Assembly (NCBI GenBank): GCA_963695855.1
Contig: CAVOHZ010000010.1
Location: forward strand, 1,024,001-1,088,000
Direction: 5' to 3'
Source: an uncultured Nitrososphaerales archaeon
GTDB lineage: Archaea > Thermoproteota > Nitrososphaeria > Nitrososphaerales > Nitrososphaeraceae
DNA: 64,000 nt
Each line of letters starts with the position of its first letter. The stretch's first letter is position 1. A program made the position numbers and the translations under genes. This document shows positions 2,369 to 62,551 of this stretch, piece after piece. Below the pieces are notes generated by a model. It made no database searches. It saw nothing but the letters and a program-made list of their open reading frames with translations, and had not been told where the DNA came from.

Positions 2369-4804
2369 TTATTTTTGCTTGAAATCTGACATTGATTTAC
2401 GTGATGACTCTATCATTTTCTTTTTCCTCGGTTGAATAAAGAGAATATACATAGAGGCAACAAGATATACAGATAACAAAATGACTTGTCCTAAAATACT
2501 CTCCAAAGTAGGATGTATTCCGGTCATTGTTGCGAGATTGACATCCAATCTAGGAATTATTCCAAATAAATGGGTAGTAGAGATGTATCCAATCTCTTGA
2601 AATTCACGAATGGCATTACCAAAAAAAGTAATAGACATATAAGCACCAACCCCCATCGTAAATCCGAAAAGAACCCGTAATGGCAATTTCTTGCCCAACT
2701 TCTTGATTATGATCGCGATCGAGATTATCACAATGAGTCCAATAATCAATCCAGACGTAACAAATAATTCCATATTCTTTGCGTAAGAGAACATGGCTTG
2801 ATAAAACAGAACAGTTTCAAAACCCTCTCTATATACTGTAAAAAAAGAAAGCATTACGAAGACCACTACACTTCCGGTTGCAGTGGCCTTCCAAACTTTG
2901 GATTTCACGAATTCAATCCATTTCTTGGTTTCAATTTTATTCAAAATCCAAAAGGATACCCAAAAAAGTACTGCAACGGCAGATATTCCTGCTATTGCCT
3001 CGATAAGTTCTTTACTTGCCCCAGATATTTCTATAAGAAATGACGCAATAAACCAAGTAATAGCTGTAGCACCAGCTGCAAGAATAATTCCAAAATAAAC
3101 ATGTTTTTTGAATCTTTCGTTTCGTGAAGCTTCTAGATATGTAGTTATTGCACCAATGATCAAAGCAGATTCCAACCCTTCTCTAAAAATTATAGAAAAT
3201 GAGGACGAAAAAGCTATTCCTGGTGCTATTGAGCCTAATCCTGATACGAGTCTTTCTGAATCATCTAGACCAGATTGAATTTCACTTGCTTTGCTCATGA
3301 CTTCTGTATATGAGGCATGCTTTTCTATCAAGTTTCTAAGCTCGGCGAATTTAATTTCCATTTCTAGCGTGAAATCAGGATCAATTGGTCTCAATGGTAG
3401 CTCTATCTTTTCATAACTATCTAAATACGCAGAACGTGCAGTTATTAGAGATTCTTCATATTTGTCTTCTTTATAGAAATTTAGTACGTCTTGTAAACTT
3501 AATCTAATTTGATCTACATCGCTTCTTACCTCGCTTTTCTCTTCTTCAGAAACTTCGCCAATATTCTTTTTTTCACCTTGAAAAATTCCAAACCCTTTAC
3601 TTAGTTCATTTATATCTGCTAAATTATTGCTCTGTTGATTGCCATTATAATGATTGACGATCCCTCTGTTGGTGACGACAGTTGTGATTGATGCATCATT
3701 TAATAAAACATTCTCTGCTTCGTCCAGTTTTTGTAAAATTTTATTTACAAAGAATTCAATCTGTTCTGATGGTGCGTTGTCTTTTATCATCTGTCTTAAT
3801 CCTTCCCTCATATTTAATTCAATTTCCAACATTAGTTCTGGATCATTTTGTTCTACTGATGCTTCAAGATATTCATAATTATCTAAGTATGCAGAAATAG
3901 CAGCCTTATCTGCTTTTTTATAGTCCTTATTGTCCTTGATTTCGTTTACTACAATGTTTAATAAAGAATCAATATTAGAGAAATAATTTTGGATCTCTAA
4001 AGGAAGGCTTTTGGATAAAGCACTTTTAGATAATTCCATTAGTTCCTTTTCTAAAATATTTATTGATTTAAAAATAGCATTATAATCGTGGTTTGTAGTA
4101 TAATTTCGTATCTGCAAAAACAGGTCCAAAACAGAATCAAGTTCTTGGCTAGGAATTGAATTAGAGATGCGGCTAATTTGATATTCAGATCTATTAACAA
4201 GTTCGTCGATAATTTGATAATTTAGCTCACTCTCCAGTTGAGATTGGTTTGATTTGATATTTCCTAATACCGATTTAGCATCTCTCAGTATCACAATAGT
4301 ACTTTGAATTAGAAAATATTTTGAATCAAGATTTTTTGTATTGATTAATTTATTTTCAATTGATTCAATCGTAGTTCGTGTTTCTGAAAAGGTTTTCTTC
4401 AACAAATCCCCCTCCGGTTTAATATTGACCAGAGTTATTGGAAGATCGGTCAACAAATGTTCTAATTTTGAAGACAATATAGGATCGATTAATAGCAATT
4501 CATCTTTTATTGATGGAAAAATCGCCTGATGTGGAAAATATGCATATGAAAAAGCATCGTGTATATTACCAGACTCAAAACTATCATCTGCCAAATTTAT
4601 CTTTGTGAGAATTCTTTCGAGGTTGTTAAATAGCGTAAAGTTTCTTTGTAAATCCTCTGAATATATTATGGATTTAGAATCGTTATTAACAACATCTACT
4701 TCAGAAGATGCATCATAAGGAGTGAAAATACAAATTACAAAAATAAATACGAAGAAAGATATACATAGTAACTTATAATTCAAATTTTTTTCATTGTTAT
4801 TCAT
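2369..4804 (-). CDS. FTR1-family high-affinity iron permease with a large extracellular N-terminal region
   Basis: Two RExxE motifs (IFREGLES, VYREGFET) in a multi-TM C-terminal domain. It has an N-terminal signal/anchor and repeated helical modules (AYLDNYEYLE, AYLDSYEKIE). Confidence 0.92.
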   Translation of the reverse strand: MNNNEKNLNYKLLCISFFVFIFVICIFTPYDASSEVDVVNNDSKSIIYSEDLQRNFTLFNNLERILTKINLADDSFESGNIHDAFSYAYFPHQAIFPSIKDELLLIDPILSSKLEHLLTDLPITLVNIKPEGDLLKKTFSETRTTIESIENKLINTKNLDSKYFLIQSTIVILRDAKSVLGNIKSNQSQLESELNYQIIDELVNRSEYQISRISNSIPSQELDSVLDLFLQIRNYTTNHDYNAIFKSINILEKELMELSKSALSKSLPLEIQNYFSNIDSLLNIVVNEIKDNKDYKKADKAAISAYLDNYEYLEASVEQNDPELMLEIELNMREGLRQMIKDNAPSEQIEFFVNKILQKLDEAENVLLNDASITTVVTNRGIVNHYNGNQQSNNLADINELSKGFGIFQGEKKNIGEVSEEEKSEVRSDVDQIRLSLQDVLNFYKEDKYEESLITARSAYLDSYEKIELPLRPIDPDFTLEMEIKFAELRNLIEKHASYTEVMSKASEIQSGLDDSERLVSGLGSIAPGIAFSSSFSIIFREGLESALIIGAITTYLEASRNERFKKHVYFGIILAAGATAITWFIASFLIEISGASKELIEAIAGISAVAVLFWVSFWILNKIETKKWIEFVKSKVWKATATGSVVVFVMLSFFTVYREGFETVLFYQAMFSYAKNMELFVTSGLIIGLIVIISIAIIIKKLGKKLPLRVLFGFTMGVGAYMSITFFGNAIREFQEIGYISTTHLFGIIPRLDVNLATMTGIHPTLESILGQVILLSVYLVASMYILFIQPRKKKMIESSRKSMSDFKQK

Positions 4805-4838
4805 ATTTTGAATCCTTCTTTGACATTCTTCTAAGATA

Positions 4839-4857
4839 TTAGGTTATCCTAACTTAT
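4839..4857. promoter_or_regulatory. DtxR/IdeR-like iron box upstream of the FTR1 permease
   Basis: TTAGGTTATCCTAACTTAT matches the DtxR consensus TTAGGTTAGCCTAACCTAA at 16 of 19 positions. It lies between the TATA-like TTTAAATA (about 4864-4875) and the start codon. Confidence 0.65.
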
Positions 4858-4979
4858 TAGCTATATTTAAATATATAGAAAAGTTCATGATTGAAAAAGA
4901 AAGTAAGGCATTTTTTTAATATATCTTAAATAAGAATATTTATTCGAAACATGCCATTACCGATTCAATAAAAATAAAA

Positions 4980-5336
4980 TTACTGTTTAAATAATTTTTC
5001 TGCCATGTCCAAGTTGGATTTTATATTGTTATGTAATGTCATAATTTCGTCCGAAGGCTTTTTGTCCTCGATAGTACTTGCAAAATCTTCTCTTATCATT
5101 ATTTCTGTTTCTTCCATTAGATCTTTATTAAGGTCCTTTAATGGATTTTCAATATATTCATAATTGTCGATATACGCAATATCGATTAGTTCAGATGCAC
5201 CTGTATAATTTCCTGTATTTAATTCTGTTATTGCCTTATCTAGTAAATTTATGATATTGGATAAAATGAAGTAATTCTTTTTCTGATTTTCCTCTTGTGC
5301 CTTAATATTGGATAATGGCAATAATAAAACTACCAT
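4980..5336 (-). CDS. Secreted stand-alone copy of the FTR1 extracellular helical module
   Basis: IAYIDNYEYIENPLKDLNKDLMEETEIMIRE aligns with the permease's SAYLDNYEYLEASVEQNDPELMLEIELNMRE. The N-terminus is signal-peptide-like (…IKA/QEE); the true start may lie slightly upstream. Confidence 0.75.
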   Translation of the reverse strand: MVVLLLPLSNIKAQEENQKKNYFILSNIINLLDKAITELNTGNYTGASELIDIAYIDNYEYIENPLKDLNKDLMEETEIMIREDFASTIEDKKPSDEIMTLHNNIKSNLDMAEKLFKQ

Positions 5337-6067
5337 TAAAATTCCTAAACTAAAGAGTATAGAAAGTTCGCTTTGAATTTATCACTGCTCTTTTTTAAAT
5401 CAAAATTTAATTATATATATTATTATTCCTTTCTCATTTTTGAAAATAATATTTGTATATCAATGTACTAATTAATTTTAATTGAATAAAATGTATGTCC
5501 AAGTCAATTGTCATCAAAGTGATTATAGCTCATTCCAAATGTCATATCCAGATATTCTGATACTGAATCTTTTTGTTCTTCTATATTGGTATAGAATGTG
5601 TTTTCAAATAAATCTGATTTTATATACTGATTTTCATTGCTTTCATTTGGATTTAGATATTGAGGGCTGCTTGGAAGATATATTATAGTCAGCAAGTCTC
5701 TGCACATTTGCATATTCTGATGTCATCTTGTTTATGTCAAATAAAGCACTTTCCCATGTCAATAGAACTTTATTCCAACGGTTTCTCCTTAAATGGATCT
5801 TGATTATCTATCTCATCAAATGAAATTTAGTCCTATTTATACAAATAAAATAACTTTCAACCAAAACGTTATTTTATCTTTGAAATAGGACCAAAAAGTA
5901 CAGTAAGTTGCAATAATAGTGGATGTTCTATTTCTGATAAATTAATCATTTTATAGAATGTCACCTTCAAAAGGAAAATCTATTTTATTAAAAAAACAGA
6001 TCTAAACAGCAATAAAAATATCCAAATAAAAAAAAATAATATTGTAGAAACCTGTTAATAACAAAGG

Positions 6068-6898
6068 ATGAAGTCGAAAATGATTGTTGCAATTGTTCAA
6101 ATGAAATCATCGACGGATAAAAATGAAAATTTGGAAACCTCTGTTCGATTTATCGAAGAAGCGGGTAGAAAAAATGCTGATTATATTTTCTTCCCAGAAT
6201 TTCAAATGGCATTTACTCCTAGTAATCAAAATTTAGATGAATTGTATTCAGTGGCTGAATCGATTTCTAATAGTAATTTTTTAAAGAAGCTTCGTCAAGA
6301 GTCAAAACGATACAATATTGGAATAGTCGGTACGATGTTTGAAAAAAATAAAAACAAGACAGAGAAAAGGGTTTTTGATACGGCATTTGTAATAAATAAA
6401 AATGGAAAAGTAATCTCGATATACAGAAAATTACATCTATATGACGCTTTTGGGTTTAAAGAATCTACTAAATTCATTAACGGTGACAAAATTACGAAAC
6501 CCTGTAAAACCATTTTTGGAAAAATGGGAGTAATGATATGCTATGACATAAGATTTCCAGAACTAGCAAGAATACTGGCATTAGAAGGATCAGATATCAT
6601 GGCAATTCCTTCTGGATGGGTAACTGGTGTTATGAAAGAGGAACATTGGATTACTATGCTTAAAGCGCGTGCTATAGAAAATGGTAACTATATTATTGCA
6701 GCAAATCAGGTTGGAAATATTTTTTGTGGAAGAAGTATGGTAGTAGATCCATTAGGTTCTGTATTGACAGACTTGGGAGATAAAATTGGATTAGAGGTAG
6801 TAGAAATCAACAAACAAAGAATAAATCAAGTCAGAGATATTTTGCCATTATTAAGAAATAGGAGAGAAGATGTTTACAGGATCAGCCAATCTGATTAG
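6068..6898 (+). CDS. Carbon-nitrogen hydrolase (nitrilase superfamily, Nit/YafV-like amidase)
   Basis: Glu-Lys-Cys triad motifs FPEF, YRKLHLYD and ICYDIRFPE, plus ARAIEN. Confidence 0.93.
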   Translation: MKSKMIVAIVQMKSSTDKNENLETSVRFIEEAGRKNADYIFFPEFQMAFTPSNQNLDELYSVAESISNSNFLKKLRQESKRYNIGIVGTMFEKNKNKTEKRVFDTAFVINKNGKVISIYRKLHLYDAFGFKESTKFINGDKITKPCKTIFGKMGVMICYDIRFPELARILALEGSDIMAIPSGWVTGVMKEEHWITMLKARAIENGNYIIAANQVGNIFCGRSMVVDPLGSVLTDLGDKIGLEVVEINKQRINQVRDILPLLRNRREDVYRISQSD

Positions 6899-9041
6899 AT
6901 ACCTGTTTCTTTTTATTTGGACAATTAATATTTATGCAAAGAGATTTTGTTAGTCTAAGAGTGTAATAAAAAATATGGATAACTGGCCAATTACAATACG
7001 AACAAGATTTAGTAGTAGATTTAATTATACCTTTTTGAGGCAGAGGCAAGGTTATACTACATCCGTAATTAAAATAATTGGAACATGATATGAATCTTTT
7101 TCTCGTTTTTCTTGATCTTATTATTTGCAGATTTCCTTTTCGACAAAGAGGACATGGTCCTACTAGAATATTTTTTCTTTTATTTTTATAATAGTTTTCA
7201 GTTTGATTATTTAACATATTGATGGTAGAAAGGTCTATTTCTAAATCATCTTTTTTATAACCATCAATAGATTCTAAAATATCGTTTATAACATCATCTA
7301 AAATATTTGAATTGTTTCTAACTCCCAGCTCAATCTCTTGTAAATATTTTTCTAACATTCTCGTTAGCTCAGTTGAAATAATCTTTGGAGATTTTTTTTG
7401 TAAATAGTCAATCAATATCATTCCAAGCTTAGTAGGTAAAAGGATATTTTTTTTTACTTCTATGTAATTTCTCTTGATCAGTGAATCTATTATATTACCT
7501 CTTGTAGATTTGGTTCCCATTCCTTCATTTTCCATTTTGGACAATAAAGAAGAATAATTGAAACGTTTAGGAGATTCGGTGAATTTTTCTTCTCTAATTA
7601 TTTCGATATTTTTCAATTTATCTCCAACTTTTAGTTTAGGTAATTGCTTAGATTGTTTAGGCATGTTGTAATAAGGAACATAAAAATGAATCCAACCATC
7701 TTTAGAAACAACGTAATCAGTTATATAGAATACATGTTCTTTATTAACAGTTACAAAAATCGTAGTTTTCAAATATATTGTCGATTCACCAAATGTCGAA
7801 AAATATCTTTTAACAATAAGATCATAAACCCGAAATTCTTGAGATGTTAAACCTGATGGCTTTCTACCAGTGGGATGAATCGCAGTGTGTGCTGGATCAG
7901 TCTTATTACCGTTGTTTGGATATAATTTCTTTTGTGACATTAATTTATGTACATTAATTTTGTATTCATCAGATATTTGAGCAAGATCCTCTAATATTTT
8001 TTTATTGTTGATAGAAGATGAAAGAGTTTGACTATCAGTACGAGGATAAGATATCAGTGTTTTTAGGTATAATTTCTCAGCTATGAAAAGAGTATAATTA
8101 GGAGAAAATCGAAATAATCTAAAGGATTCCTTTTGTAAGTCTCCTAGATTAAATGGGTAAGGAGCCTGTAGATATTCGTTTGTTTGTGAAATTTCACTTA
8201 CTAATCCATCAATATTTTGGCAGTCTTTTAATACAATTTCTGTCTCATCGATACTGCTCATTCTTCCTTTAATATAGGATAACAATAGAGAATGATTGTC
8301 TTTCTCAAAATGTATTTTTATATTCCAATAAGGCAAAGGAATATGACAGTTGATCTCATATTCCCTATCAATTACAAATTTAAGAGTTGGACTCTGAACT
8401 CTGCCAACTGTTAGATTTGTTTTAATTTCCTTTTTTTTGATGGAACTCATCAACGACCTAGAAAAATTGATACCATAAATAAAATCTAGCATATGTCTCA
8501 ACATTCCTGCATATGCCATGCCTGTGTTGGGTTTTTCCAAATTATTAAATGAGTTTATAATATCTTGATCAGTTAAAGTTGAAAATTTTGCTCTCAAACA
8601 GCCATGATATTTATTATCACAGGCTAACTGTAAAATGTTGTATCCTATTAATTCACCTTCCTGATCATAATCGCAGGCATGTATTATTCTATCAGCGTCC
8701 TCAGAAAATCTTTTTAACAGGTCTATTAACTTTTGGTTTTGTCGATTTTTTTGATTTGCTGTTAATGGAACCCAACTTAAATCAAAAACTGGAAAAAGTT
8801 TCCTGTCTTTGTAGAAATCATTTAAAGTATACAGATGACCTTTTGATGAAACAACTACGTAATTTGAGGTATTGTAGCTTATTTCATATATGGTATTATT
8901 ATTAATCCTAATTTGGTTAACTGTTTTTGATCCTAAAACATGGGATATTCTATTTGCTACACTTGGTTTTTCACATATAATCAAAGTATATTTTTTTTTA
9001 TCTACCATTAATCTTGAGAAGTTATTTTTATTATCTTTCAT
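6882..9041 (-). CDS. topA: DNA topoisomerase IA (archaeal type) with C-terminal zinc ribbons
   Basis: TOPRIM motifs CEKPS and ACDYDQEGE, GRVQSPTL, catalytic ISYPRTDS, and C-terminal CxxC pairs. Confidence 0.95.
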   Translation of the reverse strand: MKDNKNNFSRLMVDKKKYTLIICEKPSVANRISHVLGSKTVNQIRINNNTIYEISYNTSNYVVVSSKGHLYTLNDFYKDRKLFPVFDLSWVPLTANQKNRQNQKLIDLLKRFSEDADRIIHACDYDQEGELIGYNILQLACDNKYHGCLRAKFSTLTDQDIINSFNNLEKPNTGMAYAGMLRHMLDFIYGINFSRSLMSSIKKKEIKTNLTVGRVQSPTLKFVIDREYEINCHIPLPYWNIKIHFEKDNHSLLLSYIKGRMSSIDETEIVLKDCQNIDGLVSEISQTNEYLQAPYPFNLGDLQKESFRLFRFSPNYTLFIAEKLYLKTLISYPRTDSQTLSSSINNKKILEDLAQISDEYKINVHKLMSQKKLYPNNGNKTDPAHTAIHPTGRKPSGLTSQEFRVYDLIVKRYFSTFGESTIYLKTTIFVTVNKEHVFYITDYVVSKDGWIHFYVPYYNMPKQSKQLPKLKVGDKLKNIEIIREEKFTESPKRFNYSSLLSKMENEGMGTKSTRGNIIDSLIKRNYIEVKKNILLPTKLGMILIDYLQKKSPKIISTELTRMLEKYLQEIELGVRNNSNILDDVINDILESIDGYKKDDLEIDLSTINMLNNQTENYYKNKRKNILVGPCPLCRKGNLQIIRSRKTRKRFISCSNYFNYGCSITLPLPQKGIIKSTTKSCSYCNWPVIHIFYYTLRLTKSLCININCPNKKKQVSNQIG

Positions 9042-22274: not shown

Positions 22275-24152
22275 TTGCGTTATCAACTAATTGTTAGTCT
22301 AGTACATTTTTCTTTGTTTTTTTCTGTACTAGTTTTAGCGTTTAATTTTTTATTTTTGGAATCAATGGCAGCCAACCAAAATGAAGTGAATGAACAAAGA
22401 GGCATAGATAATATTTGTTTGAAATATGACAACATCACAAAAACAATAATAGTTTGTGATGACAATGTAGAGATTCCTACGATATTTTCTTTTTTTAATA
22501 ATTCAAATATCCTAGAAAGCATTGGAAACAAAGAATGGTTGTTAAGATCTAATATTCTAGTATTAGAAAATGGTACATTAATTATTGATGGTTCGAAATC
22601 TAAAGTTATAAAAATAGCTTCCAATTATTCAAGCAATATACCTTATTCCATCACATCAAGAGGAAATTTAATAATAGATAATACTAGAATAACTTCGTGG
22701 AATTCTACAAGTGATTCCCAACCTGTTGTTAGCTCTCCTGAAACCGTTAGACCTTATATCTTGACCTTTTGGGATTCTTCTGGAAAGACAAATATTACAA
22801 ATTCCTACCTAGAAAATTTAGGATATAAAGGTTACCTAGGAACAGATGGAATAACATATTTTTCTGGTAAAGGGAGTTTAATTAGCAATAATACAATATC
22901 TGGAAATTATTTGGGTTTACATTTGATGAATAATATTTCTGATATTGCAATTGAGAATAATGACATATCAAAAAGCAATTTTGAGGCTATTAAATTAGAC
23001 ACCAAAACAAACAATATTAAAGTTTTTGATAACACGATACATGAGAATAATTTACATGCAATCTCATGTATAAGAGGTTGCAATTCAGTGGATATCAAAA
23101 ATAATGTTTTAGAAAATAATATTGGTATTGGAATACTGGTAGACAAACAAGCAAAGAAGATAATTATTGAAAATAACAAGATAAAATCCAATACTATGGG
23201 TATAATGATAGCAGAGTCAGAAGATAATAGTATCAATAACAATATCATTGATAAAAACGGTAATGGTATTTTTCTAAAAAAAACTGGTGGTAATTTAATA
23301 ACAAAAAATAACATTACGGCAAGTAATAACTATGGTATAAATATTTATTCAAATTCTTCTTTAAATACGATTGAAAATAATAACATCCGAAAATCAATGA
23401 ATAGTGGAATAAATATAGCAGATTATGAAACAAAAAATAATAAATTTGCTGGAAATGTAATTGAAGGTGGATTAAATCATGGTATTAAATTGGATAGAAC
23501 TTTCAAGAACAATTTTGAATCCAATCTAGTAGATAAAAATAAGTATGGTGACTACTATATAAAATTATCAAAGGACAGTATCCTAATGAATACGTACTTT
23601 AATAAAACTTCTATTTTATTCTTTGACAAGAAGAGTAATCTCAAGATAGTTAATATGGATAATAAATTGTTAGACGGTAATAATGTTACCAATGTTGCGT
23701 ATCCAAATAACAATACAGTCATTATGTTACCCATTAAAAAATTTACCAAACTGACAACTATTGACATGTATGTTATTCCTAATTTATCTCATGTAAATAT
23801 TTCATCAATTAACAATGATTTTTCCGAAAATAAGGATTATAAAAAATGGAACGCTGTCTTTGCGGAGCCAAAAATGCAGACAAAATTTATTGTAGAGGGG
23901 TTCGATTCTGGCAGTCAATTTCTTTTAAAAACAAATGAAACAGTTTCTGAGCTGGTTTCGGTTGACAAAAGAAATAATATGCAATTTTCTTTTATTAATG
24001 ACGGATTATCATATACTTTCAAAATTGAAGCGACCAAAACTCCTATGTTAATCACGATATTAATTTTGTCAGTCCTGATTGGCGTTTCAGCTGGAATTTT
24101 CTTTTTATTGAGAAGAAAAAGGATGATTAAGGATAACAATGTAAAAAGATAA
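22275..24152 (+). CDS. Secreted, C-terminally membrane-anchored right-handed beta-helix protein (NosD/AlgG-like)
   Basis: Signal peptide, many IxNNxI repeats, GNLIIDNTRITSWN...RPYI...NLGY segment, and a C-terminal TM helix followed by RRKR. Confidence 0.85.
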   Translation: MRYQLIVSLVHFSLFFSVLVLAFNFLFLESMAANQNEVNEQRGIDNICLKYDNITKTIIVCDDNVEIPTIFSFFNNSNILESIGNKEWLLRSNILVLENGTLIIDGSKSKVIKIASNYSSNIPYSITSRGNLIIDNTRITSWNSTSDSQPVVSSPETVRPYILTFWDSSGKTNITNSYLENLGYKGYLGTDGITYFSGKGSLISNNTISGNYLGLHLMNNISDIAIENNDISKSNFEAIKLDTKTNNIKVFDNTIHENNLHAISCIRGCNSVDIKNNVLENNIGIGILVDKQAKKIIIENNKIKSNTMGIMIAESEDNSINNNIIDKNGNGIFLKKTGGNLITKNNITASNNYGINIYSNSSLNTIENNNIRKSMNSGINIADYETKNNKFAGNVIEGGLNHGIKLDRTFKNNFESNLVDKNKYGDYYIKLSKDSILMNTYFNKTSILFFDKKSNLKIVNMDNKLLDGNNVTNVAYPNNNTVIMLPIKKFTKLTTIDMYVIPNLSHVNISSINNDFSENKDYKKWNAVFAEPKMQTKFIVEGFDSGSQFLLKTNETVSELVSVDKRNNMQFSFINDGLSYTFKIEATKTPMLITILILSVLIGVSAGIFFLLRRKRMIKDNNVKR

Positions 24153-24737
24153 TAAGATTCTCCTAATTTTGTAGTAAAAGATTAATCTTATACGTCTATT
24201 ATATTACGTATTGAATTTTGGATAAAGTATATGTAATTTCAACATCCAGAAATAACTATAGCTATGGATAATAAGTACGAAATACAATACAGTAACATAC
24301 GGCTATAAGAAAGATTAGACTTAAGAGTGGCTAAATATGATGATAGATTTTAGTAATAGAATATTATCTTGTTCTATATATTTTATTGATAGTAATAATG
24401 ATAATAGAATTAGAGATTTAATGATTTCTCCAATCGTTCACAACTATATTCATAGCACCATCATCAAACAATGAACCAGTAGTGGCATTTCTAAAACCAA
24501 TATATCAACAATGATTGTCTCCCAAACTTTTACTGGATTGATATCTTCAAAAGATTCTTCAACGTTACCATCACCATCTGTATCAGAAAAAGGCGGTATT
24601 TCATAAACGACATTTGTCTCATTGTATTTTAAGGCACATTCACCTTTAGGGCCCCAAGTAAACCTTATGGTTGACGATTTTCCCATTGATTAACTTTTAA
24701 TCCCTCATCTTCAGTGTAGTATAAATTGTAAAATTTA

Positions 24738-25037
24738 TCTACTGTAACTACAACTGAAAAGGAGGAAGGAATTATAGAATTATTACGAGAACCTTCTACA
24801 GAACCACAAACAGTCACAGGCGAACAGCCTACGGAAGAAGGTCAAGCACCAACAGATGTTGCACCAACTCCAGAACAAGCAGCATTACCTACGACCTTAG
24901 AAGAAGAACCTAAAGAATAAGAGAAAGAGACAAAAGACGAGCAAGAGAGTAAAGACGAGCAAGAGCCGGAAGAGGAAGAAGAGGAAGAATCAGAAATAGA
25001 AGAGGAAGAGTCTGGAGAATAAGGAGGAAAAGGTTAA
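24738..25037 (+). pseudogene. Remnant of an acidic Glu/Pro/Thr-rich protein tail
   Basis: The frame reads STVTTTEKEEG…EPSTEPQTVTGEQPTEEGQAPTDVAPTPEQAALP…EEEEEEES with in-frame TAA at 24918 and 25020 and no start codon. Confidence 0.55.
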
Positions 25038-25230
25038 ATAAACACATTCAAAATGAATGAATTTGAAATAACTTCCGACAGCAAAAAAGTAAAAACATAA
25101 TTTTTTTTAATTTTAAATATTTTTTAACATATATCGTTTTATTGTAAAAGGTACCAGGAATGTTTGCAATGGTAGTTCAAATTCATAATTAAATTAAATA
25201 GGCCCATCCCATATAACTATATATAATTGA

Positions 25231-25310
25231 ATTTGACGAAAACACTGACTATTTGACGGGTTATTTGACGGAAATTTTGATTAAATGACGATGGTGGCTG
25301 ATTGGTGATT
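25231..25310 (+). repeat. Phased TGAC(G) box array upstream of the HTH-coiled-coil gene
   Basis: TGAC at 25234, 25246, 25254, 25266 and 25286; TGAT at 25278, 25299 and 25306. Spacing is roughly 12/8 bp. Confidence 0.7.
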
Positions 25311-25427
25311 ATAACAATAATACGATGAATTGATTTCTTTAGTTCTTAGAATTAGAAAGATACATATGTATCCCAATTTTGGGATCAAAAATGTATAAAT
25401 AACTCTTTTTTTAACCACGTTTATGTA

Positions 25428-27041
25428 ATGAAGTTACCCACACAGGAGCATATCAAATCAGCTATTATAGACTCATGGATGATGGGCAAGACACGAGATA
25501 AAATAGCATTAGAATTTAATATTAGCACAGGATCGGTTTCTAACATTATACAACAATGGCAGAATAAGATTGGTCTCTTTGATGCAAATGATCTTAGAGA
25601 ATTGGGAGTAGCATTAAAAAAGGCAGGAATATCACCTTTACAATGCGTTGATGGTTTAAGAATCAATAACATACTCAATCAACTATATATTGATGAGGAC
25701 CACCTCAACTATTTTTTAAACAAACTATATAATGAAAGTAAAGAGCAAAGATTACTACCTGCTGATATTGCAAGACTGGCTAAAGTGATAAATGACTATC
25801 CCGATATCTCCTCATTAAATGATCTACCAACATATATCAATAAAAGAAGGCAAGAAAGGATTAAACTAGATAGAGATATATATTACAGAAAAATCGAAAT
25901 CCAAAAATTGGATCATGAAAAAGAAAGGAAGAGAAAAGAGATCCAAGATTTAAAAGATGATTTTGATTCTATTAGAAAAGAGATACAAAATGAGAAAAAA
26001 GATTTTTTGTTATTCAAAAATGTAAAAGATGAACTAAAGAAAAATGGTATAGATATTCAAATTTTAGAGCCTTTAATACATGTTATAAAAATTTTTCAAG
26101 AGATGAACTTCCAACCTCTTACAATCTTCAGTGAATTTTCAGATATAAATGATTACAGAGATCTAGTTGAAAATAAAGAGAGAGGAATAAAGGAACTTGA
26201 ATTACATATCCAAGATTTAAATGCAATAAGTGACAATTATGAAATCAAGATAACATCAAATGAACCTATAGTTCAATCCTTGAAAAGGTTGGAAAACCTT
26301 GGGTTTAATGCTTCTAATATTAAATACCTAGAGAAAACATTTTCAGACGTCTCTAAAAAATTTGGTTTGAATAAAAAGCAAATCAAAATCCGATTCTTTA
26401 GATATATGGATCATTTGTATACTCTTTTAACTCTTGAACAAGATATCTTAGAAAAGACAGATAAGCTTTCTATACTGGACAGTGAAATATCTTCAAAACG
26501 AAAGGTAATAGAAGAATCTCAACCCATTGTATTTTCTATTTTACAAAACTTGGTTAATGCAGGATTAAATGAAAATGATATTCTAATGACTTTAAAAATA
26601 TTTAAAACAGATTTATGTAACAATATGCCTTTTGATATGATAACTTATCTTGAAGCTCTTTCAAAAGATCTAGACAAATATAAAACAGTAAGAGATACTT
26701 TGAAAGGGTTAGATACAAAAGTATTGTTAAAGAAATCTTATATAGAGAAACTGACATTGGTTAAAACTAATTTACAGGTTTTTCTTTTCTCATTAGCTAT
26801 GACCATTTATTTTTACTTTTTTATTTTAAATATACAATTACAAATACAAAAGAAATTTAGAATACTTTTAATATATAACTTTATTTATTTACCTTTAATC
26901 TACATTGTAAAAAGTCCTGAAAAGACTCTGAAATCTAATAAATTCAAAATAAAATCAAAAAATAACAACGACAACAATAATAATAAGAAAAAAGAAATAA
27001 AAAGAAACAATAAACTGCAAAGACAAAAATCAATGGAATAA
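25428..27041 (+). CDS. N-terminal HTH plus long coiled-coil protein with a hydrophobic C-terminal segment
   Basis: TRDKIALEFNISTGSVSNII (HTH), long K/E/L heptad stretches, hydrophobic VFLFSLAMTIYFYFFIL and a Lys-rich tail. Confidence 0.8.
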   Translation: MKLPTQEHIKSAIIDSWMMGKTRDKIALEFNISTGSVSNIIQQWQNKIGLFDANDLRELGVALKKAGISPLQCVDGLRINNILNQLYIDEDHLNYFLNKLYNESKEQRLLPADIARLAKVINDYPDISSLNDLPTYINKRRQERIKLDRDIYYRKIEIQKLDHEKERKRKEIQDLKDDFDSIRKEIQNEKKDFLLFKNVKDELKKNGIDIQILEPLIHVIKIFQEMNFQPLTIFSEFSDINDYRDLVENKERGIKELELHIQDLNAISDNYEIKITSNEPIVQSLKRLENLGFNASNIKYLEKTFSDVSKKFGLNKKQIKIRFFRYMDHLYTLLTLEQDILEKTDKLSILDSEISSKRKVIEESQPIVFSILQNLVNAGLNENDILMTLKIFKTDLCNNMPFDMITYLEALSKDLDKYKTVRDTLKGLDTKVLLKKSYIEKLTLVKTNLQVFLFSLAMTIYFYFFILNIQLQIQKKFRILLIYNFIYLPLIYIVKSPEKTLKSNKFKIKSKNNNDNNNNKKKEIKRNNKLQRQKSME

Positions 27042-27503
27042 AGTAATATTCTGTATCTTGACAATAAATTTCGATAGTTTGTAGAAACAACATAAAAAAT
27101 AATATAATAAATTTAAAATCAATGTTAAGATATTAAATGATCTAACAAAAGTATATGGTGAAAATAAAGAATTTACGAAACAACTTTTAAAATTTAAAAG
27201 CCAAACAAAAAAATACATATCATTAAATTCAAGTAAATAAAAATCAACTGCAATAATATCATTTTATAAATAATAAAATTTAGAATTCTTTACATTTCAT
27301 TAGTCAATAATTTACTTTGATCTATATAAAAGATTTAGAAGGATAATAATTTGTTTTTCATAAATTTTATCAAATTTCAATTTTATCTTTAAATGCGTTG
27401 GTTGTTTTTAAAAGTATTCCATCATAAATATATTAAGGTAACATACCCACATTTACTGTTACACATAGATCGATTGGAACAATTTAAAATCAATATCCAA
27501 CAT

Positions 27504-28283
27504 TTAAATTTCTCTATAAAAAATCTTAAAAGATTCCATAATAATTTCCTTCTTATTATCTTGTTTCCTTCTTTTTAGTACATCTTGCCATTCATTGGTA
27601 TAAGCACAAGTAACATCATCTACAGAATTATAGGAAAAAGCCAAAATGTACTTGTATTTCTTTGACCAATTTTTCTCATAGTAATGAGGATGGTTTAAAG
27701 AGATAGGATAGGCTAACGTAGAATCAATATGTATCCATTTGCCATCAATCAATGCTTCATTCCAACAATGATCTAGATAATCTTGTACAATTCTTGTTTC
27801 CACAAATTGTGAATTTAAAATTGCCCCAAATAGCATTGACCATTCACTGCATCTACCTATTCTGTTATCTGCTATTCTTTTTATTTCGCCATATCTTGGA
27901 AATACTATTTTTGAATTACATTTCAGACATTCATAAACTTCACTCATTCTTAGCTTCCAAGAATTACCTTTGATTATGCTAAAATGCAAAGGTATGTTGC
28001 AATTTTGGCATTTGATGTTTTTGCTGATGTCGCTACTATTCATCCATTTCATATAATCTTGCTTAAACCAATCAAGAAGTGGTTTTAAAATTTGTATGTT
28101 ATTATTATTTTCTTTGCTTATTGTTATTATCTCTTGTTTAATTTTTGATGGAATAAGATGATTAACATAAGCAAGAACTTTTTTGTCTTTGTATTGTCTT
28201 GCTACATTTTTATATAATATAAAAGAATCTTTTGTATAAGGAAAACCAAAGGTATTTCTGCTAAATTTATTGATTTTAAACAT
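27504..28283 (-). CDS. Peptide:N-glycanase (PNG1/NGLY1-like) transglutaminase-fold protein
   Basis: LLDWFKQDYMKW, CQNC and CLKC Zn pairs, FPRY, GRCSEW, DHCWNE, WIHID, YEKNWSKKYKYILAFS and VDDVT are colinear with the eukaryotic PNGase core. The ATG at 28283 is preferred to 28397. Confidence 0.82.
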   Translation of the reverse strand: MFKINKFSRNTFGFPYTKDSFILYKNVARQYKDKKVLAYVNHLIPSKIKQEIITISKENNNNIQILKPLLDWFKQDYMKWMNSSDISKNIKCQNCNIPLHFSIIKGNSWKLRMSEVYECLKCNSKIVFPRYGEIKRIADNRIGRCSEWSMLFGAILNSQFVETRIVQDYLDHCWNEALIDGKWIHIDSTLAYPISLNHPHYYEKNWSKKYKYILAFSYNSVDDVTCAYTNEWQDVLKRRKQDNKKEIIMESFKIFYREI

Positions 28284-28445: not shown

Positions 28446-28943
28446 CTATCCCAAAATTATCCTCCTGTAAACAATTATACTATTTGCTAACTGTACAAGA
28501 CCCAGATAGTTCTCATCCTTCTTTTCATACCTTGTAAATAATTTCCTAAATCTGTTATGCCATGAATTTGTTCTCTCTACAACCCATCTTCTTGTAGGAT
28601 GTTTCTTGTTGAGTTTCTTTTCTTCTCTTCTGTGTCGTATATGTGGGATGTATCCCCTTTTGACCATTTCTTGTTCTACTTCTTTGGAATGATATGCTTT
28701 ATCAAGGCATAGATTCTGCTTTTTCTTCTTCTTCTTGTTATTGTTGTTGTTTCTGTATTTTGTTATCGATGATGATGACGATGGTCTTTTGATAACAATA
28801 TTATCAATTGTATTTGTTGCAACGGTAACATCGTGAGTATTGGCTGATGTTATAAAAGTAGAAAGAGGAATACCATCTTTATCTGTTAGAATATGTCTTT
28901 TGCTTCCTAATTTACTCCTATCTGTAGGATTATGACCAGTCAT
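28446..28943 (-). CDS. IS5 transposase, C-terminal DDE ORF
   Basis: NPTDRSKLGSKRHILTDKDGIPL, ANTHD, CLDKAY and RWVVERTNSWHNRFRKL. Confidence 0.93.
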   Translation of the reverse strand: MTGHNPTDRSKLGSKRHILTDKDGIPLSTFITSANTHDVTVATNTIDNIVIKRPSSSSSITKYRNNNNNKKKKKKQNLCLDKAYHSKEVEQEMVKRGYIPHIRHRREEKKLNKKHPTRRWVVERTNSWHNRFRKLFTRYEKKDENYLGLVQLANSIIVYRRIILG

Positions 28944-29304
28944 CGCCCCCTAAAGGAGATTTTACTGATATGCTGTCAAGTGATTGCCAGTTCCATTTTA
29001 TTCCTCTCGTGTTATCGTATATTTTTAGTAATCTCGTCCATAATTTGTCAAATAATCCTGATTGTCTCCATTCCTGAAATCTTCTGTGGCACGTTGAACC
29101 AGAACCATATTCCTTGGGTAACATTTTCCATTGACATCCGATCCTCAAGACAAACAGGATACCATCAAGTACTTTTCTATAAGGAACAATTGGTCTACCT
29201 ATGGTATTATCTGGTTTCTCATCTGGTAAAATATTTTTTATTTCATACCAAAGGTCATCAGGAATACGTGTAATGGTTCTAACATATTTTTTACTCTTAC
29301 TCAA
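28930..29304 (-). CDS. IS5 transposase, N-terminal ORF
   Basis: IPDDLW…GRP…GILFVLRIGCQWKMLP..YGSGSTCHRRFQEW…SLDS. Confidence 0.93.
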   Translation of the reverse strand: MSKSKKYVRTITRIPDDLWYEIKNILPDEKPDNTIGRPIVPYRKVLDGILFVLRIGCQWKMLPKEYGSGSTCHRRFQEWRQSGLFDKLWTRLLKIYDNTRGIKWNWQSLDSISVKSPLGGDDWS

Positions 29305-29386: not shown

Positions 29387-30718
29387 TTATGATTTAGAAA
29401 TTTTAAATACTTTGCCGTTTTTTGTATTGGAGGCGATCACAAATAAATCTCCATCTGTTGGATCTATCTTTATGTCTGTAATAATACCAAATCCTGTACC
29501 CAATATCGCATCATTAATTTCTGAGGGAGTATTAACTATTCTATCAGCCAATGGTCCAGTCAATTGTAATCCGGTTCTAGTAGAATTAAGATCAAAATGA
29601 AGCAATGTGCCGTTTTTTACACCGCCTACTAACACGTCATCTTTATATTCATCGCCTAATGTGTCTGTATGAATAAAAGCAATTGTGGTGGGAGCCATGG
29701 TTTGATTCCATGTTAGAGCTGGATCATAATATTTGCCTTTATTATTAAATGTAATTAGCTTGTTTCTATCAAAATCTTGACCAGTCATACTCTTATATAA
29801 ATTAGGAGTTCCTAATACTTGTCTCCATCCGCTATTAAAGCCAGGTTTAATAATATTGATTTCATCACCATAATGAGAACCATTTTCTGTGTCCCATAAA
29901 TATCCTGTAATACTATCAAATCCAATTCCAAAACTGTTTCGAATACCATATCCATAATATTTGTCTAGTAGACCTAAATTACCCAAACTGAAGCCGTCGT
30001 TGACAGTATCCCCATCGGGTGTAATTCTTAATACACCTCCTCTACCATCTGGAAGAGATGTTCCTTCAAGATTTTGGGCAATAGTATCTCCGCTGGGATC
30101 TTTGATTCTATTAAGATCACCCATAACAAGATACAAATTTCCATCTGGTCCAATTCGCAATACCCCGCCATTATGAGATGGTCCTGGAGTGAATGGTAAA
30201 TCCAAAAGCAGCACCGGATTCACTAGCTTTCCATCAATAAAGTCATATCTATAAAGTTTATTTCCTAAAATATTACCATCGTCCTGACCTTCTGTTTCAG
30301 TAGCAAAAAGAAAAACATAAGAACGAATTAAAGAACCATCATCTTCTGAAAATTTTCCCGATTTAGATAAATTCAAATAAGCAATTCCTAAAAGACCTCT
30401 TTCACTCTCCGATGCAACATTCAGATCCAATAGTTGAGTTACTTGTCCATTAGTTATTCTTTTTACTATACCTGTATTCTTTTCTATTAATAAAAAGTCA
30501 TCGTTTCCAATAATTTCCATACCTATTGGAAAATTCAGATCATCTATAATCATTTCAGCTTTTAAATTGGGATCAGTTAAAATTGGATTAATATCTTTTT
30601 TTGATTTCTTCTTTGATTGAGCATCAATATCATCAAGAGTTATTGATAAAAGAAACATACCAGCAAATATGAAAATAGTAAAAGAAATTTTTTCAATATT
30701 ATTATTTAATAGAGTCAT
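29387..30718 (-). CDS. Secreted PQQ-dependent glucose/sorbosone (aldose sugar) dehydrogenase
   Basis: ERGLLGIA, HNGGVLRIGPDGNLY, YGIRNSFGIGFD, ENG..GDEIN and GFNSGW. Confidence 0.92.
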   Translation of the reverse strand: MTLLNNNIEKISFTIFIFAGMFLLSITLDDIDAQSKKKSKKDINPILTDPNLKAEMIIDDLNFPIGMEIIGNDDFLLIEKNTGIVKRITNGQVTQLLDLNVASESERGLLGIAYLNLSKSGKFSEDDGSLIRSYVFLFATETEGQDDGNILGNKLYRYDFIDGKLVNPVLLLDLPFTPGPSHNGGVLRIGPDGNLYLVMGDLNRIKDPSGDTIAQNLEGTSLPDGRGGVLRITPDGDTVNDGFSLGNLGLLDKYYGYGIRNSFGIGFDSITGYLWDTENGSHYGDEINIIKPGFNSGWRQVLGTPNLYKSMTGQDFDRNKLITFNNKGKYYDPALTWNQTMAPTTIAFIHTDTLGDEYKDDVLVGGVKNGTLLHFDLNSTRTGLQLTGPLADRIVNTPSEINDAILGTGFGIITDIKIDPTDGDLFVIASNTKNGKVFKISKS

Positions 30719-30879
30719 ATGGTCAAAATATTGTCAAGTATATTTGAATCTATTCGAAGATATAAATGAAGATTATGGAGAAGATCTGTTTGAATCCGCA
30801 GAATAAAATTCCCAAACAAGTTTATATTATGTTGTATTATAAAAATTAAAGAAATATTTTTTATTTATTGTGCGATATT

Positions 30880-58633: not shown

Positions 58634-58701
58634 TTGACGAAAACAGTGACCAATTGACCGTTTGTATGATGAATTTAATTATATAATGACGAAATACGTC
58701 A
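58634..58701 (+). repeat. Second phased TGAC box array, homologous to 25233-25290
   Basis: TTGACGAAAACAGTGACCAATTGACCG compares with TTGACGAAAACACTGACTATTTGACGG. Boxes are at 58635, 58647, 58655, 58667 (TGAT) and 58687, and the array ends in the palindrome TGACG-N5-CGTCA. Confidence 0.7.
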
Positions 58702-58735: not shown

Positions 58736-59498
58736 TTGGCTGTCAGAATCGCGCCTGCAACAAGATCATCAGTAATAAAATTATGGTTAATGAGTAACAC
58801 AAGAGATGAAATAGCATTAAAATAATTAATCACCAAAGGAACTGCCTCAAATATTAAGCAATGGAAAAATATGATTGGGTTCAATGACGCTTCTAGCATG
58901 AGAGACCTTGCTGTAGCACTGAGGAAGTCTATTTACCGGAGACTTGTTGAATAATATGCCGTATGGAAACGCGACTTATTTGAACCCTCTTTCAGAGGAA
59001 ATAAAAAGATATCCAACTGTCAACGACAATTTAAATAGGCCGGACCAAGAATTCCTGAAAAATCAGTCCGAGATCTCCAAATTGGCAGCAAACAAATCGT
59101 TTTTAGATTTTTTTGTTCATTATGGAATGTTATTTGTTTGATGTACAGTATTTCATTGAAAATTCAGGTACATATTCAGAAAAAGTTTGTTGAAATTGTG
59201 ACAATACATGGTTTACTTGCTTTACACGAGTTCAATAAAAGAAAACTCAACCAGTTCAAGAGAAAAAATTAAACCAAACAAAAAAAGAAAAATCTTCAAA
59301 GAAGAAAATAAACCAGATTTTATCCAGCGAATCTTGGATTGTTCACATGAAAAGATGTTAGCAACCTTATCAGAATATAAAAGAAGCATACAAGTTCAAG
59401 ATTTAACAAATAACCAGTGCAACAATAAACAATTGCTGAAAGATCTGGTTGTTGATATCGAAGATTTAGAAAAGAAAATAAATCTAAAAATAAAGTGA
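58736..59498 (+). pseudogene. Degraded paralog of the HTH-coiled-coil gene at 25428
   Basis: From TTG 58736 it reads AVRIAPATRSSVIKLWLMSNTRDEIALK*LITKGTASNIKQWKNMIGFNDASSMRDLAVALRKS, aligning with KLPTQEHIKSAIIDSWMMGKTRDKIALEFNISTGSVSNIIQQWQNKIGLFDANDLRELGVALKKA. There is a stop at 58823. The 3' extent is uncertain. Confidence 0.75.
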
Positions 59499-61693: not shown

Positions 61694-62551
61694 TTGCTAC
61701 TCTTATTTGCTATTCCTATAATTGATAAAGAAGTGACTGCTCAAGAGATTATCGACAATGAGGTATTATCTGAAAATAATGATGATAATTCAGATATAAA
61801 CAAATTTGTAGCTAAGCCTCAAGTTGATGTAAATATACAGGGTACTAAACTAGATGACAAATTGAGGGGAGGAGATGGAGATGACCAAATTGAGGGAGGA
61901 AAGGGAGAAGATACTCTCCAAGGTAATGAAGGAGATGACCAAATTGATGGAGGAAAGGGAGACGATAAGCTGAAGGGAGGAGATGATGATGACCAAATTG
62001 ATGGAGGAGATGATGATGACCAAATTGATGGAGGAAAGGGAGACGATAAGCTGAAGGGAGGAGATGATGATGACCAAATTGATGGAGGAGATGATGATGA
62101 CCAAATTGATGGAGGAAAGGGAGACGATGTCATGGATGGAGGAAAGGGAGAAGATAAGCTGAAGGGAGGAGATGGAAATGATACTCTTCGGGGTAATGAA
62201 GCAGATGATGAAATTGATGGAGGAAAGGCAGATGATCTCATAGATGGGGCAGTTGGTGACGATGAGCTGAAGGGGGGAAAAGGAGCAGATAGATTTATGT
62301 GCGATATGGGGGACAAAATTATAGATTATAATTCTTTAGAAAATGATAAAATTGTAGGACAATGCAAATATGAAGATAAAGGATTAATACCAAAACCTAT
62401 ACCTATCCCTGATAAAGTTATACCTAAACAGGCTGTAGAAAAAGAAGATCTATTTCCAAATTCAGCAGTGAAACCCAGCAACGAGGACGATAGCTTTCAA
62501 AAATTTGTGTCAAAATTTATTGGTATGTATTTTTCAGGATTATTCAAATAA
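61694..62551 (+). CDS. Secreted calcium-binding protein with RTX-like GGxGxD nonapeptide repeats
   Basis: Many GGKGDDKLK and GGDDDDQID units, an 81-bp internal tandem duplication and a signal-like N-terminus. The true start is probably upstream. Confidence 0.88.
   Translation: MLLLFAIPIIDKEVTAQEIIDNEVLSENNDDNSDINKFVAKPQVDVNIQGTKLDDKLRGGDGDDQIEGGKGEDTLQGNEGDDQIDGGKGDDKLKGGDDDDQIDGGDDDDQIDGGKGDDKLKGGDDDDQIDGGDDDDQIDGGKGDDVMDGGKGEDKLKGGDGNDTLRGNEADDEIDGGKADDLIDGAVGDDELKGGKGADRFMCDMGDKIIDYNSLENDKIVGQCKYEDKGLIPKPIPIPDKVIPKQAVEKEDLFPNSAVKPSNEDDSFQKFVSKFIGMYFSGLFK

Follow-up and report, generated by a model that had tools for sequence, protein, structure and literature searches.

A phased TGAC-box array paired with a helix-turn-helix gene family of Nitrososphaeraceae: a putative autoregulatory cassette

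We analyzed a 64-kb stretch of DNA from an uncultured, soil ammonia-oxidizing archaeon of the Nitrososphaerales (here called the window), in which the gene for a 537-amino-acid (537-aa) protein, P0001, is preceded by an array of short TGAC boxes. The context is chromosomal, and the window also carries genes for ThrRS and glycosyltransferases. A second array lies in front of a decayed copy of the gene. The coordinates of both loci are collected in Table 1.

Table 1. Features of the two array-gene loci (window positions)
Feature	Position	Strand	Description
A/T-rich block just 5' of box 1	25205..25232	+	…TATATAATTGAATT; left similarity limit
Array 1	25233..25294	+	five direct TTGACG(G)-type boxes (TGAC at 25234, 25246, 25254, 25266, 25286) and a non-conserved TGAT at 25278
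Spacer with conserved blocks	25295..25427	+	distal A/T run and proximal TATA-like sequence
Gene for 537-aa protein P0001	25428..27041	+	HTH, long helices, hydrophobic hairpin, basic tail
Array 2, partly decayed	58634..58695	+	TGAC at 58635, 58647, 58655, 58687; TGAT at 58667
Pseudogene, N-terminal fragment	58736..58930	+	residues 1-66 of the 537-aa clade, in-frame stop
Pseudogene, C-terminal fragment	58929..59312	+	residues ~390-523, other frame

An earlier note on this DNA had placed TGAC boxes in front of both gene copies. In array 1, TGAC was found at offsets 0, 12, 20, 32, and 52 from the first box, as claimed, and offset 44, which the note had given in brackets, reads TGAT. For array 2, the claimed offsets were 0, 12, 20, 32, and 52. 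Four of these stood (0, 12, 20, and 52 from 58635), while offset 32 turned out to be degenerate and reads TGAT. The two arrays are identical at 23/27 positions over their first 27 bp, which were rightly described as nearly identical, compared to 14/40 in the 40 bp upstream of them. Over the 62-bp array, identity is 43/62. To judge how specific such arrays are, we counted chains of at least three TGAC boxes at 8- to 13-bp spacing on both strands. Three chains were detected in the 64-kb window, compared to 0.12 expected from 300 dinucleotide-preserving shuffles, in which the maximum was 2. For chains of at least four boxes, the numbers were 1 observed and 0.007 expected. Phased TTGAC[GC] pairs, on either strand, are confined in the window to the loci of arrays 1 and 2.

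The third chain, at 30717-30739 on the minus strand, is weaker and consists of three boxes (TTGACaa, TTGACca, and ATGACtc) spaced by 11 and 8 bp. This chain extends into the start codon of a glucose/sorbosone dehydrogenase gene (29387-30718, minus strand) and could be either a secondary target of the HTH family or the product of chance. A gene of this type is also found near the family member in one of the related loci described below (L009). The box TTGAC(G/C) looks like the bacterial -35 consensus hexamer, TTGACA, which may be a coincidence. The helix-turn-helix (HTH) of relatives of P0001, and of clusters in the ESM Atlas, weakly matches models of sigma-70 region 4 and extracytoplasmic function (ECF) sigma factors (18 bits, against a cut-off of 42.9).

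We compared the window with 20 loci from other Nitrososphaeraceae, retrieved in one scan of species-representative genomes and amounting to 122,207 bp. Four of these loci carry close homologues of P0001 (L001 to L004, 64-71% identity) and 16 carry distant ones (21-41%). In 15/20 loci, exactly one phased chain of at least three TGAC boxes was detected, always just 5' of the homologue and on the same strand. No other phased TGAC chain was found on either strand anywhere in the 122,207 bp. The earlier note had proposed that the array and the DNA-binding gene form one module and that the motif should be sought upstream of other homologues and elsewhere. The array indeed travels with the gene upstream of both close and distant homologues, and it occurs essentially nowhere else, so that this proposal held up. 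Four of the other five loci contain two to five boxes at other spacings (19/13 and 12 bp in L011, L018, and L020; two boxes 23 bp apart in L019). The fifth, L006, has no boxes and is missing its 5' end; as it resembles L008 only from within the coding sequence onward, its upstream region must have been replaced.

The arrangement of the boxes is constrained and inherited with the family. L001 to L004 keep the spacing of 0, 12, 20, 32, and 52 exactly, and the +44 position is not conserved. Other clades use spacings of 9-12-12-9, 11-9-12-11-9, or 13-12-10 bp, and the boxes persist between paralogues at 21-41% protein identity while the sequence between the boxes differs. Among the five orthologues, the array is 77-90% identical, compared to 59-73% at synonymous sites. 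The boxes fall on one face of the DNA, about one per helical turn: the mean resultant length peaks at 10.5 bp, with a value of 0.829 versus 0.709 +/- 0.040 for random 8- to 13-bp spacing (maximum of 0.831 in 2000 random trials), a statistic that is indicative only because many of the arrays are orthologous and thus not independent. On the protein side, all loci share the conserved recognition helix G(S/T)VSNII.(E/Q)W. Together, these observations make it very probable that the array is a functional cis-element belonging to this gene family.

As the earlier note had outlined, P0001 has an N-terminal HTH, long helices, a hydrophobic C-terminal segment, and a basic tail. The HTH (residues 1-48) lies inside a helical domain (residues 1-136) and is followed by long helices at residues 130-205, 240-290, and 316-355. 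An AlphaFold2 (AF2) model of residues 1-136, built from 117 diverse relatives, reached a pLDDT of 90.5 with helices at residues 7-18, 23-29, and 34-48; in this model, the N terminus adopts a confidently predicted three-helix HTH fold. Its best local matches in a Foldseek search were DNA-binding domains of the LuxR/GerE/NarL type, with target-normalized TM scores of 0.6-0.69 across about 60 residues and E values of at least 0.25 for all. Several distant homologues exceed the Pfam cut-offs for HTH families, including those of L005 (HTH_23, 37.9 bits), L007 (HTH_28, 39.6 bits), L016, and L017, as well as P0166. The AF2 model of full-length P0001 is all-helical but poor (pLDDT 54.8), too poor for a fold search, and when residues 1-240 were modelled as a complex of two copies, the score was 0.19, short of the mark of 0.42, which is evidence neither way. 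A profile search of P0001 against PDB sequences returned coiled-coil noise only. Likewise, Pfam, NCBIfam, and PHROGs contained no curated model for the body of the protein and gave only HTH and coiled-coil noise, with no NCBIfam or PHROGs match exceeding its cut-off.

The C terminus of P0001 contains a hydrophobic hairpin at about residues 448-498 (nucleotides 26769-26921), followed by the basic tail (residues 499-537). This feature is conserved in the clade to which P0001 belongs, referred to as the 537-aa clade. A 19-aa window with a Kyte-Doolittle value of at least 1.6 is present in 27/28 clade members, and a second hydrophobic segment followed by a K/R-rich tail is present in 28/28. This pattern points to a hairpin of two helices whose ends both lie on the cytoplasmic side. 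Two other ideas about the protein were discarded. A four-fold internal repeat of a helix-turn beginning 'LKKxG(I/F)…' reached a best E value of 0.004 and a probability of 8% when sub-alignments were compared with hhalign. A bZIP-like reading, prompted by a basic stretch before the first long helix and by the TGACG box, came from recall only, and direct repeats are ill-suited to a bZIP dimer.

Judged by its sequence, the second locus carries a pseudogene that belongs with P0001 in the 537-aa clade, as the description of a decayed paralogue had implied. Besides the in-frame stop and the change of frame, residues ~67-389 (about 320 codons) are deleted, and the two remaining fragments are joined directly. 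The fragments are 41-52% identical to every member of the 537-aa clade; therefore, this copy is old. Its upstream region lacks about 93 bp of the spacer of the 537-aa clade and shows the layout that is general in other clades.

The orthologue alignment also reveals conserved blocks around the array. Directly 5' of box 1 lies the conserved block TAATTGAATT. Downstream of the array, the 537-aa clade shows a G-rich patch, a distal A/T run, several conserved blocks, and then a proximal TATA-like sequence. In the window, the distal run ATTATAA begins 18 nt past the last box, and the putative proximal element TATAAATA lies at 25394-25401, 27-34 nt 5' of the ATG. Outside the 537-aa clade, an A/T run of at least 6 nt begins 3-16 nt after the last box in 13/15 loci, and this run is found 27-38 nt before the ATG in 11/15 loci. 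By this position, the array outside the 537-aa clade abuts the presumptive core promoter, and the last box would lie at or near the position of the B recognition element (BRE). By blastn, similarity between the window and L001 to L004 begins at 25187-25217 and ends at 26894-27029. A tblastx comparison of the flanks of the window and L001 to L004 revealed no common gene, and these flanks are unrelated in DNA and protein. At the right end of the unit, nothing is conserved among the window, L003, and L004. Rfam gave no match over 24100-27600. Pfam analysis of 104 open reading frames (ORFs) in the loci identified no recurrent partner gene, and the neighbors differ at every locus.

The protein family is large. 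A word-indexed search retrieved 147 proteins at E values of at most 0.001; among the 120 matches listed are full-length relatives with 60-78% identity, and all the named ones belong to Nitrososphaeraceae. An exhaustive profile search retrieved 1180 clusters (at 50% identity) at E values of at most 0.001, 504 of them at 1e-10 or below. Neighbors in the ESM Atlas are Nitrososphaerota clusters, some with HTH_23. A tblastn search of 72,556 plasmids and 50,697 phage records detected no relatives. Across the superfamily, a variable C-terminal module appears to be attached to a conserved core made up of the HTH and the helices, since the hydrophobic segment is restricted to 13/93 long representatives and is absent from the eight non-clade locus proteins checked, while a C-terminal F5/8 type C domain is present in 2/72 representatives scanned. 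These two C termini fit the expectation of a variable sensor or localization module. In the proteins concerned, P0223 (702 aa) and P0250 (798 aa), long linkers rich in Ser and Pro connect the family core at the N terminus to the F5/8 type C (discoidin) domain at the C terminus. Neither has a detectable hydrophobic segment, an unusual situation given that this domain is normally found outside the cell.

By a modest balance of probability, the unit at about 25205-27041 is a self-contained autoregulatory cassette of a Nitrososphaeraceae-specific family, in which the HTH would read the boxes of its own gene and the proteins of the 537-aa clade would be membrane bound. Because the pairing of array and gene recurs upstream of relatives, the boxes are most likely the family's own regulatory docking site. 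According to our model, the N-terminal HTH recognizes the TTGAC(G/C) boxes upstream of its own gene. The boxes repeat in the same orientation along one face of the helix, at roughly one per turn, so that several molecules of the protein may load side by side, probably held together by the long helical region; we infer both the binding of these boxes by this HTH and the oligomerization from sequence. The loaded proteins would then control the adjacent core promoter. Such autoregulation had been named in the earlier note as the conservative alternative, and as a prediction it is the best fit to the anatomy. Cross-talk would be likely among paralogues with the same recognition helix. In the 537-aa clade, the C-terminal hydrophobic hairpin and the basic tail argue for a membrane-bound regulator of the one-component type, and the bound DNA would be held at the membrane, either as a by-product or as a part of signalling. 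With regard to the direction of control, a last box at the BRE position suggests repression, whereas an upstream array resembles the sites of archaeal activators such as ArnR.

Several points weigh against this account. In P0001 itself, the Pfam HTH matches (residues 13-46) stay below threshold, with 16.6 against 25 bits for HTH_28 and 13 against 24.6 bits for HTH_23, and the Foldseek search of the N-terminal model against PDB and BFVD gave nothing at E values of at most 0.001. The membrane hairpin was assigned by hydropathy and not by a dedicated transmembrane predictor. Moreover, as only 13/93 long representatives have the hydrophobic segment, membrane anchoring is not the general mode of the family. 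The TATA and promoter assignments were made by eye. The 537-aa clade also differs from the other clades in the placement of its array, which is 136-167 nt away from the ATG and well removed from the proximal TATA-like box. The dependence among orthologous arrays, noted above, reduces the weight of the phasing. Finally, one of the two peptide patterns used for retrieval was the recognition helix itself, G[ST]VSN[IV][IK]x[QE]W, which leaves members with other helices unsampled. The joint constancy of helix and box therefore does not amount to covariation, as the loci were fetched partly by this pattern.

We consider it unlikely that the boxes are regulatory but read by a different factor, for example a master regulator or a single paralogue that controls the entire gene family jointly, with the adjacent protein serving another role, for instance as a scaffold or in nucleoid organization. 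A common trans-acting factor would be expected to produce the same TGAC core across all clades, as is found; no covariation of helix and box could be shown, and array 2 is partly kept beside a dead gene. However, the array occurs solely beside family members (elsewhere, there is one weak 3-box chain in the window and none in 122 kb), and the family supplies its own conserved HTH, which makes a separate regulator the less economical choice.

The earlier note had suggested a DNA-membrane tether or a partition system. In such a centromere-like module, the array would be a cis-anchor comparable to parC, tubC, or RacA sites, the coiled-coil hairpin protein would fasten or pair DNA at the membrane in the service of segregation or chromosome organization, and autoregulation would be secondary. 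Type II and type III plasmid centromeres are organized as helically phased direct repeats immediately 5' of the gene for their binder, the 537-aa clade combines a conserved hydrophobic hairpin with long helices, and the two arrays in the window lie on the same strand, 33 kb apart. In addition, one family member is found near a ParB_N gene (L015) and another near integrase and PrimPol genes (L014). Conversely, no gene of the ParA, ParM, or TubZ type was found among 23 ORFs of the window (15.9-34.8 and 52.3-63.9 kb) or the 104 ORFs of the loci. The lack of such a nearby NTPase motor gene, the chromosomal context, and the absence of relatives from the plasmid and phage collections speak against partition. 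As for the tether, the hairpin is limited to one clade and absent from most of the superfamily, whereas the arrays are family-wide; the arrays also adjoin presumptive core promoters. We rate this explanation as distinctly unlikely. A bolder version is that the proteins of this large, Nitrososphaerota-only family gather or fasten their own array-marked loci through coiled-coil assembly, aided in the 537-aa clade by the membrane hairpin. This would be a motor-less chromosomal analogue of centromere or RacA-like anchoring, maybe derived from a transposase OrfA-like HTH and maybe spreading as a single-gene cassette, and it seems to us decidedly improbable.

The array might instead be the end of a single-gene mobile element, and the protein a recombinase or an OrfA-like regulator of transposition. 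Similarity to the four orthologous units sets in some 17-47 bp 5' of box 1 and does not extend past the gene, with unrelated flanks in every genome. Two loci from one metagenome-assembled genome (MAG), L009 and L016, share 94.6% identity from a point 4 bp 5' of the first box onward. The HTH resembles those at the N termini of transposases (HTH_23, HTH_28, ISL3, and IS3), many family copies are truncated, and dN/dS is fairly high (0.32-0.44, at dS of 0.34-0.60). Sharp similarity limits, however, are also expected of any gene and promoter in unconserved surroundings. There is no second array at the other end in either orientation and no conserved right boundary, and Pfam, NCBIfam, and PHROGs detected no catalytic domain in a protein that is predicted to be all-helical. 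Only one locus per MAG was found in the four MAGs with a close-clade match, and the second copy in the window is old. We regard this explanation, which the earlier note had also raised, as very improbable. The partition and mobile-element explanations each lack defining features among those tested, and no rival is supported beyond analogy. Chance, or shared ancestry of a functionless upstream region, can be set aside as extremely improbable: TGAC is short, AT-rich genomes give many repeats, and other 4-mers also form chains, but the shuffles predict only 0.12 and 0.007 chains, the array is more conserved than synonymous sites, and the boxes and their phasing survive where flanking bases and proteins (21-41% identity) have diverged.

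Other features were observed in the window and in the related loci. Between the gene for a beta-helix protein and array 1, an acidic frame rich in Pro, Thr, and Glu (24732-25022, plus strand) has an in-frame stop at ~24918-24920, ends in a Glu run, and has no start codon. This frame, absent from the list of ORFs of at least 50 aa, probably represents the remains of a gene. An IS4/IS5-type transposase (28446-29304, minus strand), situated two genes past the HTH gene, is split into two overlapping ORFs, with DUF4096 at 28930-29304 and the DDE domain at 28446-28943. The split is due either to a frameshift or decay of this copy or to programmed frameshifting. No tRNA was found in the window. At 61694-62551 (plus strand), a 285-aa protein consists almost entirely of RTX calcium-binding nonapeptide repeats (eight Pfam stretches). 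In L014, from Ca. Nitrosopolaris wilkensis, the genes for a PrimPol-domain protein and a tyrosine integrase (4690-8232) lie within 6 kb of a truncated family member, and this copy probably sits in an integrated element. A sequence of about 90 bp is shared at 79-80% identity by three loci from three different MAGs (L002, 1261-1351; L003, 986-1071; L010, 7572-7668). This sequence may be a small mobile or repeated element; its copies in L002 and L003 are located some 160-270 bp 5' of the TGAC array. L005 (2597-2845) and L017 (6285-6533, opposite orientation), which come from two different MAGs, share a 250-bp segment at 92% identity; in L017, this segment stands directly downstream of a truncated family gene.

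To our knowledge, almost nothing is known about gene regulation in soil ammonia-oxidizing archaea. For a large family that is still uncharacterized, the present analysis proposes a specific protein-DNA site pair that can be tested. Should the HTH read the boxes, the family would provide an example of cooperative binding to direct repeats, which is rare in archaea, and would join ArnR as a second type of archaeal regulator bound to the membrane. Arrays acting as anchors would instead represent a new way of organizing the archaeal chromosome. Neither the family nor the motif was found in the portions of the literature searched, which included PMC4158269 and PMC6563490 apart from their supplements.

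As for the N-terminal HTHs of IS3/IS630-type transposases, profile matches of P0001 and its relatives point to the same HTH class (HTH_23, HTH_28, HTH_Tnp_ISL3, and IS3), those of P0001 itself being below threshold, and, as in OrfA (HTH plus leucine zipper), the HTH is followed by a coiled coil. In contrast to these systems, P0001 has neither a DDE domain nor terminal inverted repeats, and its gene is not found in many near-identical copies. Bacillus RacA, to which the earlier note had compared the protein, also combines an HTH with a coiled coil and ties DNA to the cell envelope. However, the winged HTH of RacA is of the MerR type, its GC-rich binding sites are dispersed near oriC, and the protein docks on DivIVA without being inserted into the membrane. 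Here, Pfam gave no MerR match, the structural matches are of the LuxR/GerE type, no similarity to RacA was found, and only two arrays are present in 64 kb, each beside a family gene. The comparison thus holds as an analogy only. In the plasmid centromeres parC-ParR of R1 and tubC-TubR of pBtoxis, iterated, phased direct repeats lie just 5' of the binder's gene, and these sites serve as operators as well; the binder ParR has a ribbon-helix-helix fold. The loci described here share the iterated, phased repeats next to the gene of the predicted binder, but they are chromosomal and have no ParM or TubZ motor gene and no plasmid relatives.

Closer parallels are found among transcriptional regulators. 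The pho boxes of the OmpR/PhoB family are helically phased direct repeats read by HTH units. Binding to phased direct repeats is also described for SARP regulators, which use heptamers, and for BldC, which forms head-to-tail multimers (PMC5930380, PMC5859096). In all these cases, as in the arrangement proposed here, direct repeats about one turn apart lie by the core promoter and several HTHs occupy one face of the DNA. These regulators, however, are bacterial, belong to other HTH classes, and have no long coiled coil or membrane hairpin. Moreover, the array is here a family-wide hallmark of the regulator's own gene. Among archaeal proteins, ArnR and ArnR1 of Sulfolobus acidocaldarius are reported to consist of an N-terminal HTH and two C-terminal transmembrane helices and to bind at -43 to -84 of the flaB promoter, upstream of the BRE and TATA box (parts of PMC6396743). 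P0001 is likewise archaeal: its HTH is N-terminal, its helical middle part is predicted to be cytoplasmic, and two hydrophobic helices (by hydropathy) lie towards the C terminus, with putative binding sites upstream of the presumptive BRE and TATA box. In contrast to ArnR, whose boxes are inverted repeats (TCGAC-N5-GTCGA) at its target flaB, the boxes described here are direct repeats at the protein's own gene; the Pfam scan of P0001 detected no HAMP or sensor domain, and its middle part is much longer. The 537-aa clade may therefore be called ArnR-type in layout, a comparison made by layout and not by sequence, and not a demonstrated homologue. Thus, the logic of an HTH regulator with phased direct-repeat operators and the membrane-bound one-component design are both known, whereas the protein family, its long helical body, and its family-wide array appear to be new.

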